64,000 nt of DNA, taken from a virus (Duplodnaviria > Heunggongvirae > Uroviricota > Caudoviricetes). Each line of letters starts with the position of its first letter. The stretch's first letter is position 1. Of this stretch, positions 10,325 to 64,000 are shown in pieces. Position numbers and translations under genes: made by a program. The notes beneath the pieces were generated by a model. The model did not search any database. It saw only the letters and a list, made by a program, of their open reading frames with translations, and was not told the origin of the DNA. The DNA lies in IMG/VR virus record IMGVR_UViG_2579778842_000003; one strand, written 5' to 3'.

Positions 10325-10765
10325 ATGGCCACATTATCTGATACAATAAAACCGAATAAAACATATCTTGAGGCGGTGCTGCGTACGGCGTTGTTAGGAA
10401 AGACAGAAGACGAATACGTTGATTTCTTCCTGTCAGGGCTACGCGGGCGATTACTGAAAAATCCCCGCCTGTACCGCAGTTATGGCCCATACTGGCCGGA
10501 AATTAAAAAATTATTACTGGAGCGCGGTTATGGTAATTTCGGTCGTCTCGTTGACCGTGACGTTCGCAAAATTTACCGTTATGACCGCCCGGCGCTGACA
10601 CTCATAGCCGCGACGCTCTACAGCCAGGAGCGTTTTGATAATGGTCAGATATACTCAGCCTGGCATTTACTGCCAGTGCCTGAAGAAGTTGACGACCAGG
10701 ACTATGAGTTTGAGTCTTACGATTTGGAAGTTGAAGCCTTGGCACAGGCTGGAGAGAAAACTTGA
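10325..10765 (+). CDS. hypothetical protein (P1 Ulx-like by position and size)
   Basis: 146-aa ORF directly downstream of darB, same strand; P1-like codon usage. Confidence 0.5.
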   Translation: MATLSDTIKPNKTYLEAVLRTALLGKTEDEYVDFFLSGLRGRLLKNPRLYRSYGPYWPEIKKLLLERGYGNFGRLVDRDVRKIYRYDRPALTLIAATLYSQERFDNGQIYSAWHLLPVPEEVDDQDYEFESYDLEVEALAQAGEKT

Positions 10766-11010
10766 AAAAGCGATACTACACAGTAAAGCATGGGACGCTA
10801 CGAGCATTACAAGAGTTTGCTGACAAGCATAACGTTGAGGTGCGCAGGGAAGGGGGAAGTAAAGCTCTGCGTATGTACCGTCCGGATGGGAAATGGCGTA
10901 CGGTCGTCGATTTCAAAACTAACAGCGTTCCCCAGGGCGTCCGTGACCGGGCATTCGAAGAATGGGAGCAGATCATCATAGATAACGCATTGCTCCTGAA
11001 TGCTGATTAA
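10762..11010 (+). CDS. small protein (P1 Lxc/Bof-like by position and size)
   Basis: 82-aa ORF overlapping the previous stop (ATGA-type coupling); followed by a strong terminator hairpin. Confidence 0.45.
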   Translation: MKKRYYTVKHGTLRALQEFADKHNVEVRREGGSKALRMYRPDGKWRTVVDFKTNSVPQGVRDRAFEEWEQIIIDNALLLNAD

Positions 11011-11045
11011 TTTATCGGGCAGTTTTATCTGCCCGATAAATTTTT
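11011..11045. terminator. strong hairpin terminator between convergent lxc-like and SIR2-like genes
   Basis: Perfect 12-bp inverted repeat TTTATCGGGCAG / CTGCCCGATAAA with a 6-nt loop, followed by TTTTT. Confidence 0.55.
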
Positions 11046-11056
11046 ATCGACCACAA

Positions 11057-12364
11057 TTACACTATATTCTTAACTATAAGGTTGGCGTCCTTCAAGGTGC
11101 CTAATGTTTCAATGTGGTTTTTTATCATTAATCTATTTGAGGCAATTATTGCAGGCCATCGTGTTTCCCAAGCTCTGTAAGCATACCAAGAAACTCCCCA
11201 ATTCCTTTCTTTACTCATATGACCCATCGAGTATTCAACTGCGTCTAAATATGTTTTTTCATACTTAGTATTGCTAACCTCTATGATGCTTCCAAAATAT
11301 ATAAGCCATTTTGCCAACTGTTCATATTGCTCCCACGCTCCGTTATTCCTTGTTAACTTTCTCTTTTTTTCTATTATCCTTTCGAAAAGAGAAACGACTT
11401 TATCATCATTCCAATCTAAACCTTCCGATATAATTGATGATATAATTTGATAAAATGAATCCTCTAATTTAAGATATTCATTTTTATAAGTATAAGCCCC
11501 CGAAACAACTTTTCTGATATTTTCGCGCGCTCTTTCAATGATGTCTTTAATGAGAGACATCTTATAACTTAATCGACTAAAGAAACAATCTATTTCTGTA
11601 TTGTCAATTACCCTTATACCAAAGCAATAGAAGTAATAATCCTTCATATCTTGACTTACTTTGTTGCGAGATATCAAAAAGATATTAGAGCACAGGGCAT
11701 TATTTTTCGAAAATTTTTTATAGTCATTTATAATTGCTTTAAGATTTGTGTCGCTTAAAGAATACCCTAATATCGCAACTGTATTTTCATGCAGCATCGT
11801 ACTAAGTTTTCGTGAAAAATAAGTATCGGAATTTATAAATCTGAAGTAATCATCTGAAGTGACAATCATATTTTTTGGCGAATCAATAGAGCCATGAACA
11901 TGATATATTTTCACCTTGGATGGATACTTTGGAATTGGCAGGCCGGGCGTGATAGACTGTACACTTTCATCTCCAACCAAGCATTCAGCCAACTTGTCAT
12001 AATTTGTTGTAATGACACGGAATGAGTTTTTTTGGAAAAAATCTTTTATATTTGATATGTCTTCTCCAAGTTGAATTGGAGATATGATGTCAACAATTTC
12101 ATCATAAATCGACTTACCCTCAATATTGAGCTTCAAAGATAGTATTTGTGCGGCTTCTTCAAGACTCAGTGCTGGTGGTTTATCATCAGGGAATAACGTG
12201 TCTTCCAACTTTTTGGCATTGTGAACTTTGCTGCAAACTTTTTTTAATAGTTCCTTCCACGTTGGAGCTTCACCGTTCGAGACTGCCTTTGAAAAGCCAG
12301 TCCCGGTAAATAGACAAAGCCTGCTTGTAGCGGCAGCGTATGCTAACTCAACATATTCGCTCAT
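11057..12364 (-). CDS. SIR2-family (SIR2_2-like, putative NAD+ hydrolase) protein with uncharacterised C-terminal domain; candidate anti-phage defence gene
   Basis: 435-aa ORF, visibly AT-rich versus flanks. Motifs: LFTGTGFSKAV (GxGxS), VITTNYDKL (TNYD), IYHVHGS...IVTSDDYF. GGAG SD upstream of the ATG. Occupies the slot where P1 carries res/mod. Confidence 0.8.
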   Translation of the reverse strand: MSEYVELAYAAATSRLCLFTGTGFSKAVSNGEAPTWKELLKKVCSKVHNAKKLEDTLFPDDKPPALSLEEAAQILSLKLNIEGKSIYDEIVDIISPIQLGEDISNIKDFFQKNSFRVITTNYDKLAECLVGDESVQSITPGLPIPKYPSKVKIYHVHGSIDSPKNMIVTSDDYFRFINSDTYFSRKLSTMLHENTVAILGYSLSDTNLKAIINDYKKFSKNNALCSNIFLISRNKVSQDMKDYYFYCFGIRVIDNTEIDCFFSRLSYKMSLIKDIIERARENIRKVVSGAYTYKNEYLKLEDSFYQIISSIISEGLDWNDDKVVSLFERIIEKKRKLTRNNGAWEQYEQLAKWLIYFGSIIEVSNTKYEKTYLDAVEYSMGHMSKERNWGVSWYAYRAWETRWPAIIASNRLMIKNHIETLGTLKDANLIVKNIV

Positions 12365-12420
12365 TACTTACTCCATTTACTTATAGTTCTATGGAGAAGT
12401 ATACCCTAATGCATTGACGT

Positions 12421-13089
12421 TTATAGATAATTTCCTTTTCCAGTTAACTCCCCTTTAGGCACCCGTTTTTGTGCCAGTGTTTGGGTTCCGCGAATTATGT
12501 TAATCAGAGGGCTTAGTAACGATGATTCCTGGCGGGCATCAACTTCTCCTGCCATTGCCCTAATGTAGTCGGCGCTTGCAACGTTGTTATATTCCGTTGC
12601 GAAGCAGCATAACAACGTCAGAACGTGCTCTGTCGTTATTTCGCTCCAGTTGATGTTGAAAAATTCATCGCCTTTTTTGTCATGTTCGGAATCGAAGATG
12701 CTTTGGTGAAGGATGTATTTGCCGGATTCCTTGCGCGGTAACTTGATCGCTTTCTGGCGTTCCAATTCCTTGTAAATCTGCATCGCTTCAATCAGTACCG
12801 GTCTGCCGTTCATGAAGGGATCACGCAACCTTACACGCTGGCCAACTCGACCGGTAATAAAGCTGTTTTCCTCTTCCACCAGCACGATAAAACCCTTTTC
12901 CTCTTTTTCTCGCAATTCGCGCAGCAGCTGGAGTTCCATATCGCGGCGGCGTTCAGGGTAGCTGGTCCGCTCAGCCATTATCAGCTCATTGTTGATCCAT
13001 GCGGCAGTCATTGACGCCGGTTTGCCGACGCTCATCGAAACAACGCATATTTTCTTATCCATAGCGCCCCTACAAAAAAGAAAAGCCAC
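12421..13089 (-). CDS. hypothetical protein (P1 Mat-like by position)
   Basis: 222-aa ORF between ref and the SIR2-like gene; alternative start at MDKK (13062). Positional assignment only. Confidence 0.5.
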   Translation of the reverse strand: MAFLFCRGAMDKKICVVSMSVGKPASMTAAWINNELIMAERTSYPERRRDMELQLLRELREKEEKGFIVLVEEENSFITGRVGQRVRLRDPFMNGRPVLIEAMQIYKELERQKAIKLPRKESGKYILHQSIFDSEHDKKGDEFFNINWSEITTEHVLTLLCCFATEYNNVASADYIRAMAGEVDARQESSLLSPLINIIRGTQTLAQKRVPKGELTGKGNYL

Positions 13090-29987: not shown

Positions 29988-30183
29988 GCTTCACCTCGAT
30001 AGGCTTGATGGTGTCTAACAGCAGTCGGCGGCGCGTATTTTCTGCAAAATGGCGGCGCCCAGTTTCTTTGTGGTAAAACTCGTTTTTGCCGACGACCCAC
30101 ATCCGCTCTGTTTGGTGCAGTTTTTTTACCTTCGGGCCATCTTTGGTGATCACGGTACCGGTATGGGTTTTTACGATTGTCAT
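29980..30183 (-). CDS. hypothetical small basic protein
   Basis: 67-aa ORF coupled to the upstream PAPS-reductase-like gene (stop/start overlap). Confidence 0.4.
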   Translation of the reverse strand: MTIVKTHTGTVITKDGPKVKKLHQTERMWVVGKNEFYHKETGRRHFAENTRRRLLLDTIKPIEVKHV

Positions 30184-31058
30184 TCCACTACCTCTTCGAA
30201 TTTCAACTCCAATTGGTCACCCCAGATTTCACATGATTCGGAACACGAACCAGTATCAAACCGCTTGGCCAGCACCATCGCCTGATACAAATTTCTGTAG
30301 TCACTGTCGGCATACATTCTGGCAATCCCGTCAAGCGTCAGGTGGCCACGGTACATAACGTCTTTACCTGTTCTGCGCTGACCATCCCTGACGTGTTTGC
30401 CTGTAACCAGTTCATTAAAAACCCGCATCAGACCTGGTTCGTCTTTACATGCAAGCCCCAGCTTTTGCGTTGACTTTTTGATGCAAAAAACACAGTTCCC
30501 GAGGTGCTCCGGGATTTGCAAATCAAAAGGTTGTTTTCGCCACCACCGGATAACATCCGACTTATCAAAATCTGACAGTTCGGCAAGATACCGGACGCCC
30601 GGTTTCGGTTTCAGCCTACGGGGTTCGTCCGCACGAATACCGAGCCATGTGATGTAATTCCCTCGCCCAAAATGATCATCGCAATATTTCGTGAAAGGGG
30701 TGAGTTTTAGCCTGTCGGTACAGAACGCGCCGCCGATGTATGGCGTACCGTACTTTTTAACCATGTCCATAAACGGTTTAAGCACCGGCATTCGCGTCTG
30801 AATATCCTTTGGTTCCCATTCCGTATAACCATTTGGCTGCCCAAGTTCTGGATTTATATCGACCTGCAACACCGTTAGCGGTACGTTCCAGAACTTCACA
30901 ACCTCACGAATAAAGCGATACGTCAGAGGATGTTCACAGCCGGTATCCATAAAAATGAAATGGACGCTAGCGCCAGCTTTTCGCTGTGCTTCCATCAGAT
31001 GAACGAGATAAGCCGATGTTCGTCCACCTGAAAAGCTGACAACTTGATGCATACTCAC
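30180..31058 (-). CDS. PAPS reductase-like / PP-loop ATP pyrophosphatase family protein
   Basis: 292 aa; N-terminal SFSGGRTSAYL (SGGxDS-type PP-loop). Confidence 0.7.
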   Translation of the reverse strand: MSMHQVVSFSGGRTSAYLVHLMEAQRKAGASVHFIFMDTGCEHPLTYRFIREVVKFWNVPLTVLQVDINPELGQPNGYTEWEPKDIQTRMPVLKPFMDMVKKYGTPYIGGAFCTDRLKLTPFTKYCDDHFGRGNYITWLGIRADEPRRLKPKPGVRYLAELSDFDKSDVIRWWRKQPFDLQIPEHLGNCVFCIKKSTQKLGLACKDEPGLMRVFNELVTGKHVRDGQRRTGKDVMYRGHLTLDGIARMYADSDYRNLYQAMVLAKRFDTGSCSESCEIWGDQLELKFEEVVE

Positions 31059-62953: not shown

Positions 62954-63250
62954 GTGTTATCCCTTGTACTTTTAATCTTCTTCGGGGGAGGTTTACCTCC
63001 CCTTGATACAACCGCATTCCACCGCCTAGCGAATAGAGTAAAATAACATCTTGTAAATACTCTGGTATGAAGTGAGTGTAAACTAACAGTTACCTATTAA
63101 TAAATACTCCTATACTTTTCTACCTTAAATATTTAGTATGCACATGGTTAAATTTATGTAGCGTCAAAGTTTGTGAAGGCAAGATGTCCGTTAATCTTTG
63201 TCGAAGCATATATGGTTCTAGGAAGTATTGGCTTATTTAAGAGGAATGTC

Positions 63251-64000
63251 ATGTTACGTATCAATGATATGAGCAATATTATTGTAGGTATTTACAGCAA
63301 AAAAAATGAAGAAAAATCATTTGAGTATATGTACTCTTATCTGACAAGGAAAACAGCTTATTTAACACGTGAGTTTATTCGTGATGGTAATCAGGATAAA
63401 GAATTATTAAAAAATACCTATATAGAAGCATTGTCTTGGCTTTTTGCAATCTGTGATAAACTTGAAATACAACCACAGGAAGCATTTTATAAAAAATTTC
63501 CTAGTTGCTGTCCTTATTGCTTAGGGGCGCCTTGTTCCTGTTCTCAAACACACAGAAAGCCAGAGAAAATAAGAAGCGCAAAAGGAATTAAAGATGAGCT
63601 TTTCAATAAATATAACGCTATTAAACCTATGCAATTTCCGCCTTATGCGCCACGAATGATTAATGACATCTATCCGTCGAATAGAACCATTTGGTCTACT
63701 TTTGGTGGGTTTTATCATTCATCCAGGTTATTCGAAGAGTTGGGTGAGTTGCAAGAGGCTTATGCTAAATCAATTGAAGATAAAAATTACAACAAAGAAA
63801 ATCTTCATGAAGAGTGTGCTGATATATATGCTTGGTTGTTTTCTTTATGGGGGATTATTTTTAAAGATGATGATCTTGGCGAGGCGTTTGAAAGTTATTA
63901 TCTAAATGGTTGTCCTGTCTGCAATAAAAGAGAATGTGTTTGTGTCAGTTATTCAGGGAAGATTAGTAAAACTGATGAGAAAAGAGCATCATTGGAAAAA
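63251..64000 (+). CDS. AT-rich ORF running off the window end: MazG-like NTP pyrophosphohydrolase-type helices with CxxC/CxC clusters (3'-truncated)
   Basis: Open from ATG 63251 to base 64000 with no stop (absent from the ORF track); LFEELGELQEAYAK and EECADIYAWLFSL match MazG-type EExxE / EExxD helices; Cys clusters CCPYCLGAPCSCS and CPVCNKRECVCV. Confidence 0.5.
   Translation, partial: MLRINDMSNIIVGIYSKKNEEKSFEYMYSYLTRKTAYLTREFIRDGNQDKELLKNTYIEALSWLFAICDKLEIQPQEAFYKKFPSCCPYCLGAPCSCSQTHRKPEKIRSAKGIKDELFNKYNAIKPMQFPPYAPRMINDIYPSNRTIWSTFGGFYHSSRLFEELGELQEAYAKSIEDKNYNKENLHEECADIYAWLFSLWGIIFKDDDLGEAFESYYLNGCPVCNKRECVCVSYSGKISKTDEKRASLEK

Follow-up and report, generated by a model that had tools for sequence, protein, structure and literature searches.

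The protein of 435 amino acids (aa) encoded at 11057..12364 on the minus strand of IMG/VR virus record IMGVR_UViG_2579778842_000003, of which a stretch of 64,000 nt (hereafter the window) was analysed, combines an N-terminal SIR2_2 domain with a C-terminal domain modelled as helical repeats, and its gene stands alone in an exchangeable cargo slot of a P1-type plasmid-prophage. An anti-phage role of this protein is considered likely on the combined analysis. Somewhat less firmly, although still with slight preference over all other accounts together, the protein is viewed as a self-contained, single-polypeptide abortive-infection enzyme that hydrolyses nicotinamide adenine dinucleotide (NADase), DSR-like and carried as a moron, in which the helical domain would have a regulating or sensing function.

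The open reading frame (ORF) starts with ATG, is preceded by a GGAG ribosome-binding site (RBS) 6-9 nt 5′ of the start codon, terminates with a stop codon at 11057-11059, and on these features is a genuine protein-coding gene. It is complete according to the ORF list, WP_032167077.1 and PHROG 7567: the product is identical to WP_032167077.1 (‘SIR2 family protein’) of plasmid NZ_CP091040.1, the exact protein is present on 152 contigs, and the match to PHROG 7567, labelled ‘unknown function’ in PHROGs, runs from end to end (1-434 of 434, E=5.5e-247). Public annotations are restricted to ‘SIR2 family protein’ or ‘SIR2 family NAD-dependent protein deacylase’. Among 5.8 billion proteins searched, 678 were homologous at E<1e-5; the top 120 were full-length proteins of 431-477 aa (nearly all 431-444 aa) from hosts including Xenorhabdus, Pantoea, Klebsiella, Vibrio, Halomonas, Pseudoalteromonas, Marinobacter, Pseudomonas, Paracidovorax, Delftia and Rhizobium. 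Full-length identity to the best homologues, which derive from alpha-, beta- and gamma-proteobacteria, was 52-62%, with strictly conserved length. Partial or truncated database copies of the gene are numerous (P0004, P0143, P0247-P0256), and one family copy (P0153) is fused to, or interrupted by, integrase-core (rve) domains of an insertion sequence (IS). The truncated and partial copies suggest recurrent inactivation, though assembly fragments may account for some of them.

The N-terminal domain was identified with Pfam, alignment and Foldseek. Pfam SIR2_2 (PF13289) matched residues 117-252 with an E-value of 1.1e-23 and 84.3 bits against a cut-off of 24.5, the alignment with DSR2 covered residues 14-282, and in the structure model the SIR2 fold occupied residues ~1-254 (11603..12364, minus strand). 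A preliminary description of this DNA had assigned a SIR2-like region to roughly residues 1-230, followed by a C-terminus of ~200 aa without known motif. The SIR2 assignment and the lack of a family match for the C-terminus both held; the boundary moved, since the SIR2 fold reaches residue ~254 and leaves a C-terminal part of ~180 aa (255-435). The SIR2 motifs GxGxS (G21, G23, S25), TTNYD (N121, D123) and HVHGS (H155, H157) are present, and all seven residues were invariant in an alignment of 64 homologous sequences. In the DSR2 alignment, moreover, N121 falls on catalytic N133 and H157 on catalytic H171, the latter column being confirmed by the DSR2 H171A mutant entry. Foldseek matched the protein to DSR2, ThsA and KomBC, with TMt ~0.7 for SIR2-only chains, and the closest solved relatives in both sequence and fold are the defence NADases DSR2, ThsA and KomC. 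By score, GxGxS motif and catalytic Asn and His, the protein is on sequence criteria a member of the SIR2_2 superfamily. The characterised SIR2_2 defence proteins (ThsA, DSR1/2, SIR2-HerA, SPARSA, Avs5 and KomC) hydrolyse NAD+, and the 435-aa protein is itself very probably an NAD+-consuming enzyme.

The public ‘deacylase’ label would instead fit a protein-modifying SIR2 enzyme, either a deacylase or an ADP-ribosyltransferase, that serves lysogenic conversion, host takeover or counter-defence and uses the solenoid as substrate adaptor. This account is considered improbable, as the protein falls in the SIR2_2 clade, in which the characterised members are NADases, and as the Pfam scan at E<=0.1 returned only SIR2_2 and a sub-threshold match to BBH37, without the canonical sirtuin model (PF02146) or any other SIR2-type model. 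The CxxC pairs of a zinc ribbon or Cys4 module are likewise absent from the 435-aa sequence.

The C-terminal domain (residues 255-435; 11060..11602, minus strand) was modelled alone with AlphaFold2 at a pLDDT of 91.4 and a pTM of 0.83, giving nine helices, and the full-length model built on the full alignment reached a pLDDT of 81.8. Residues 255-435 are thereby confidently modelled as an alpha-solenoid of about four hairpins. Structure prediction and Foldseek, which the preliminary description had named as the way to place this domain, thus gave a fold class and, against the PDB, no significant match. Pfam at E<=10 contained no family for the C-terminal ~180 aa, except for the sub-threshold BBH37 match. 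The predicted structure is all-alpha, with neither SLOG nor another nucleotide-binding fold, which together with the lack of a TIR gene on the element speaks against the earlier option of a ThsA-type SLOG domain in an ordinary Thoeris system. Alpha-solenoids are generic protein-binding scaffolds, a property that would also suit the substrate adaptor of a protein-modifying enzyme.

Seven C-terminal residues were invariant among the 64 homologues (W344, W353, W393, W399, W403, N410 and R411). When the C-terminal profile was searched against 1.84 billion representative proteins, 94 proteins were matched; every full-length match was 406-480 aa long with the module at about 255-445, and the ten most distant matches all contained an N-terminal SIR2_2 domain. 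The helical module is dedicated to the SIR2 enzyme instead of being shuffled, because its profile finds only SIR2 proteins; a sensor module shared with other effectors was considered and rejected, as no other effector carrying it was found. That the helical domain is the direct sensor is a real possibility, though not one to be expected with confidence, and it is suggested by the analogy to DSR2, the exclusivity of the module and the concentration of allele divergence in the module (see below).

Partners of the gene were searched for on the element and across the family. No TIR, HerA, SMC/LmuB, STAND or Argonaute gene is annotated anywhere on the identical plasmid (97.7 kb), and a PADLOC scan of the 63 further ORFs of the window produced no TIR/ThsB, HerA, STAND or Argonaute partner. 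PADLOC matches in the window were limited to the methylase Dmt of the backbone, a member of the PAPS-reductase family, the DnaB-type helicase Ban (mad8 profile) and a weak LmuB candidate (E=1.4e-4). The LmuB candidate was rejected, since the matching segment is a coiled coil in PmgS, which P1 encodes as well. The neighbour survey covered 42 loci in which ORFs were called. Their SIR2 proteins were sorted into 21 lineages by a 90% identity cut-off, and up to three genes on each side of the SIR2 gene entered the clustering. Only P1 backbone genes formed clusters common to three or more of the 21 lineages; besides these, no neighbour cluster occurred in more than two. A Pfam census of 99 flanking proteins similarly found no family in more than two, and in several of the 42 loci the SIR2 gene is bordered by opposite-strand genes on both sides.

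The surveyed loci include P1-like, P2-like and lambdoid prophages as well as plain chromosomes, and a scan of IMG/VR recovered 29 viral contigs with full-length family members. Eight genome-assembly contexts had no common neighbour: in E. coli the SIR2 gene lies directly after the integrase at the end of a lambdoid prophage, in Marinobacter on a mobile element in an island with type I restriction-modification (R-M) and GmrSD genes, in Halomonas in an island with HNH, DUF4145, DUF87 and AAA_16-TPR genes, in Pantoea after a gene for an HD-domain hydrolase, and in Pseudoalteromonas, Paracidovorax and Rhizobium in ordinary chromosome. Small upstream ORFs in Halomonas and Pseudoalteromonas were examined as a hidden partner and rejected, being unrelated to each other and to Mat. 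A DUF87 gene was found ~2.6 kb downstream, with three genes between, at a single locus (L009).

Two further loci were recorded for their settings. On viral contig L032 (1674-9662), a member with 54% identity is found in a defence-island-like setting, with a gene for an 857-aa SMC_N/AAA_23 protein upstream on the opposite strand, a gene for a DUF2971 protein directly upstream, and, two genes downstream and co-directional with the family member, a gene for a 288-aa TIR_2 protein, the sole TIR neighbour (1 of 21 lineages). On L023 (3893-7311), 13 bp separate a member with 58% identity from the gpV spike gene. This member also adjoins Baseplate_J and is oppositely oriented, which is a cargo position among the tail genes of a P2-like prophage, unlike the P1 and lambdoid positions.

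The gene is thus, with high confidence, a stand-alone gene, and the family is taken as stand-alone because no neighbour is conserved across the 42 loci and 21 lineages. Its positions in temperate phages, which here belong to three unrelated types, are typical of morons (accessory cargo). In these respects the initial impression of a stand-alone SIR2-like gene without recognisable partner was confirmed by the plasmid annotation, by PADLOC and by the 42 loci. Two of its alternatives were contradicted, namely a partner elsewhere on the element, of which there is none on the identical plasmid or in the window ORFs, and a remnant of a system whose homologues are always paired. Of its proposal of a compact single-gene system with a C-terminal sensor, the single-gene part is retained, and the sensor and defence parts are kept here as suggestions.

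The same survey bears on the possibility that the protein is an orphan effector, which would need either a TIR-made nucleotide as in Thoeris or an LmuB-like protein that holds it in check as in Lamassu. The profiles of ThsA (E=1.8e-17) and LmuA-SIR2 (E=5e-16) do match the SIR2 domain, but both are confined to the SIR2 half and are followed here by an all-helical C-terminus without SLOG or nucleotide-binding fold. L032 has both a TIR_2 gene two genes downstream and an SMC_N gene upstream, but no other of the 21 lineages has a TIR neighbour, none of the neighbouring genes is conserved, and the window ORF that matches LmuB belongs to the P1 backbone. As the one-gene cassette in addition moves into unrelated phages and chromosomes, dependence on a partner or signal from elsewhere is considered quite improbable.

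The window represents a P1-type plasmid-prophage, with the 2255-aa DarB, Ulx, Lxc, Mat, Ref, C8 and Cre encoded in P1 order, and these backbone genes were 95-97% identical in nucleotide sequence to P1 and its relatives (megablast). At the SIR2 gene, the window was 100% identical to the IncY plasmid NZ_CP091040.1 (97.7 kb) of E. coli W25K. The slot is flanked on the left by lxc (10762..11010, plus strand), the P1 backbone C1 modulator identified by megablast to P1 and RCS47 and by the P1 annotation, and on the right by the maturation control gene mat (12421..13089, minus strand; 96.5% identical to P1 1988-3462), which is located directly upstream of the SIR2 gene in the same direction. Both flanking genes are 95-97% identical to P1, in agreement with the earlier statement that the immediate neighbours are backbone genes.

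In P1, the lxc-mat interval (L002 3469-9749) of ~6.3 kb is occupied by the EcoPI type III res/mod genes and IS5, and in RCS47 the slot is empty (L065 1012-1050), with 39 nt including a hairpin separating lxc from mat. On alignment to this empty site, the insert of the window, ~1.4 kb with SIR2 as the single gene, starts right after the lxc stop and ends at the mat stop at 12421. The SIR2 gene is oriented opposite to res/mod of P1, and the GC percentage is 33.5 in the cassette versus ~50 in the flanks. Between the convergent lxc and SIR2 genes there is a perfect 12-bp inverted repeat, TTTATCGGGCAG-ATAAAA-CTGCCCGATAAA (11011..11040), a probable bidirectional terminator at the distal edge of the cassette; at the corresponding position RCS47 has a different, GC-rich hairpin. 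A 56-nt leader with the GGAG RBS (12365..12420, minus strand), defined by the sequence and by the alignment of the three alleles described below, extends from the mat stop to the SIR2 start. No hairpin or terminator was found in this leader, nor were the P1 late-promoter box and the C1 operator, and a sigma-70 scan of it gave weak matches in numbers not above chance.

The lxc-mat interval behaves as an exchangeable cargo slot of P1-like elements. In the annotations of SJ46 and vB_EcoM-673R5 a RelA/SpoT-family protein is listed in the slot, and JL22 and Ro157c2YLVW have other hypothetical or helix-turn-helix (HTH) genes there. In pO26_98E11_1, a SIR2 gene (allele C, see below) has mat on one side and a type III res gene on the other, and thus SIR2 and res/mod can coexist. 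The presence of the SIR2 gene where P1 has EcoPI res/mod supports a defence context. The surroundings have also been weighed for a protein-modifying enzyme: the gene follows mat with no terminator between them and has darB and ulx, two anti-restriction genes, as neighbours, a setting that might suit a counter-defence or takeover function, but the slot is that of the res/mod defence system, and other family members are located in R-M/GmrSD and TIR/SMC islands.

Among 5,426 complete E. coli genomes, 134 matched the cassette, at 137 places in total, of which 135 were plasmid-borne. Three diverged SIR2 lineages occupy the same P1 slot. Allele A, that of the window, was an intact full-length ORF in 43 complete E. 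coli genomes. Allele B (L019) was found in about 19 genomes with 83-87% nucleotide identity to allele A, and allele C (L020) in about 70 genomes, where the nucleotide match was limited to the leader and the first ~90 nt; allele C is a 434-aa SIR2 gene adjoining mat, with 58% protein identity to allele A. The 56-nt leader was nearly identical in all three alleles when aligned against the RCS47 empty site. The region comprising the leader and the first ~28 codons (window 12279-12420) was ~85-100% conserved among the P1-borne alleles, and could be a recombination arm or a regulatory element.

Divergence between alleles A and B was distributed unevenly over the two domains. The SIR2 domain showed ~95% protein identity with non-synonymous (dN) and synonymous (dS) divergences of 0.03 and 0.57, and the helical domain ~70% protein identity with a dN of 0.20 and a dS of 1.41. 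Both domains are under purifying selection, as indicated by the dN/dS ratios of 0.05 (SIR2 domain) and 0.14 (helical domain). Since dS rises as well as dN, the pattern indicates recombinational replacement of the helical module in place of faster evolution in situ, and on this sequence comparison it fits the exchange of a specificity module. Purifying selection of this strength is otherwise more expected of an enzyme with a fixed substrate than of an arms-race sensor, which is a point for the protein-modifying account.

A plasmid-addiction or selfish toxin, or decaying functionless cargo hitch-hiking in the recombination-prone P1 slot, could be suspected from the many partial copies and at least one IS-interrupted copy, from the fact that the slot can be empty (RCS47), and from the phd/doc and hok-type modules that the element already carries (annotation of the identical plasmid). 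Against this stand the 43 complete E. coli genomes with an intact ORF for allele A alone, the dN/dS ratios of 0.05-0.14, the catalytic and C-terminal residues invariant across bacterial classes, and the absence of any antitoxin-like small ORF travelling with the SIR2 gene. The account is considered very improbable.

According to the favoured account of a single-polypeptide abortive-infection protein, the N-terminal SIR2_2 domain would be an NADase held inactive at rest, and the C-terminal helical-repeat domain of ~180 aa would be its regulatory module, most likely binding a rival-phage product or controlling oligomerisation of the enzyme, a suggestion drawn from the HEAT-like sensor in DSR2. 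A trigger event would switch on NAD+ hydrolysis, upon which the infection would be aborted, to the benefit of the lysogen population and, through it, of the prophage. It may be presumed that the trigger is not a normal product of the carrier prophage, or that the prophage controls the protein during its own lytic growth.

Several observations weigh against this account. Family conservation (52-62% identity, fixed length, low dN/dS) is unusual for a sensor of phage proteins, and about half of the non-viral contexts are ordinary chromosome, not defence islands. The pTM of the full-length model was 0.64, meaning moderate inter-domain confidence, and fold searches found no specific structural relative for the helical domain. 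In addition, the gene might be expressed together with the P1 lytic genes and not in the lysogen, as there is no convincing promoter and no terminator after mat. Finally, no published description or test of the 435-aa SIR2 family was found in the literature. A discovery study centred on domains explicitly set single-gene candidates aside, and a Vibrio cholerae paper on NAD depletion was considered as an account of this protein and rejected, as it deals with SIR2-HerA (Nezha).

A bolder version, considered rather unlikely, is that the protein represents the smallest self-sufficient SIR2 immune protein, in which the four-hairpin domain would act as both sensor and switch for a conserved cue, specificity would be reset by module swap, and P1-, P2- and lambda-like phages would trade the gene among themselves as a portable cassette for exclusion. 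A conserved cue may be sensed because of the high family conservation and the invariant Trp-rich cluster; candidates may be a small molecule, a nucleic-acid feature or a change in host state, rather than a variable phage protein.

If the protein works alone, it would provide a minimal model for the off/on switching of SIR2 NADases, and at 435 aa, compared with 1005 aa in DSR2, structural and mutational dissection would be much easier. The design principle is familiar, and the SIR2 plus helical-repeat family is widespread, small and easy to test. The lxc-mat interval is at the same time documented as an exchangeable defence slot, holding res/mod, nothing, a RelA/SpoT-family gene or one of three SIR2 lineages. 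About 2.5% of complete E. coli genomes carry a family member in the P1 slot, and among clinical and livestock strains of this species the family is frequent. P1-like plasmids often also carry resistance genes. If the protein defends, it could shape which phages, therapeutic ones included, infect strains with P1-like plasmids.

Outside the slot, the window includes other regions of deviating composition. In the block at ~23-31 kb the GC percentage dips to 39-42, and the block looks like non-P1 cargo. It contains a PAPS-reductase-family ORF (30180-31058, minus strand), probably the source of the PADLOC matches to SspD (E=1.8e-13), DndC and BrxP, which were placed on this ORF through the position in the plasmid annotation and not through a per-ORF scan. 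Near this ORF, ead/Ea22-like and DUF551 genes are annotated on the identical plasmid. GC content is also markedly low (33.7%) over the last 1,000 nt of the window (63001-64000), which correspond by position to a plasmid gene annotated ‘MazG-like family protein’; this gene may be another piece of foreign cargo.

In comparison with known SIR2 systems, the 435-aa protein is outside Thoeris, DSR1/2, Nezha, Lamassu, Kongming, SPARSA and PDC-S25, as the features that define each of them were lacking. For Thoeris, ThsA (SIR2-SLOG) is similar in size (476 aa) and has an N-terminal SIR2_2 NADase domain, and PDB entries 6LHX and 8BTO were also matched; however, the PADLOC ThsA profile matches the SIR2 half only, and the SLOG (STALD) domain of ThsA, which binds glycocyclic ADP-ribose (gcADPR), has no counterpart in the all-alpha C-terminus. 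Thoeris also needs ThsB (TIR), which is missing from both the window and the identical plasmid, and membership was rejected, the TIR neighbour on L032 being a single case. The Lamassu LmuA-SIR2 profile aligned residues 13-241 to positions 14-238 of 433, again the SIR2 half only, and this membership was likewise rejected, with no LmuB partner and the C-terminal region of LmuA unmatched. The best PADLOC match was PDC-S25 (E=1.1e-26), a single-gene SIR2 candidate, but the profile was covered at 127-289 of 517, i.e. the SIR2 core, and the C-terminal parts are unrelated.

The SIR2_2 effector is shared with several multi-component or fused systems that differ in the remaining parts. SIR2-HerA (Nezha / Gao_Her) has an adjacent HerA (DUF87) that is absent from the window and the plasmid, Kongming KomC acts with KomA/B, the genes of which are absent here, SPARSA (SIR2-APAZ with short pAgo) includes a short Argonaute and APAZ, both absent here, and Avs5 (SIR2-STAND) has a fused NTPase that this protein does not have. 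The canonical sirtuin deacylases (CobB/Sir2) are set apart by the missing PF02146 match and CxxC pairs.

DSR2 of Bacillus subtilis (PDB 8WKX, 8K98 and others) is the closest counterpart: it is likewise a single gene with an N-terminal SIR2_2 NADase domain, it is the best match in both sequence (E=4e-10) and fold, and its catalytic Asn and His are equivalent. Its HEAT-like solenoid binds a phage tail tube protein, upon which the SIR2 active site opens (PMC11850899). The C-terminal parts of both proteins belong to the alpha-solenoid class, a resemblance in design and not homology of a sensor, as the helical domain has no specific similarity to DSR2. Moreover, DSR2 has ~1005 aa with a linker, a helical bundle and 11 HEAT-like hairpins, compared with 435 aa and about four hairpins here; ~1000-1260 aa are expected of DSR1/DSR2, and the NCBIfam Dsr1 and Dsr2 models gave 26.2 and 22.6 bits, respectively, against a cut-off of 1400 and on the SIR2 core only. 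The EcoPI res/mod system of P1, in turn, is a type III R-M system of two genes and ~6 kb in opposite orientation, and unrelated in mechanism to the SIR2 protein, but it takes the same lxc-mat position and represents prophage-encoded protection of the lysogen.

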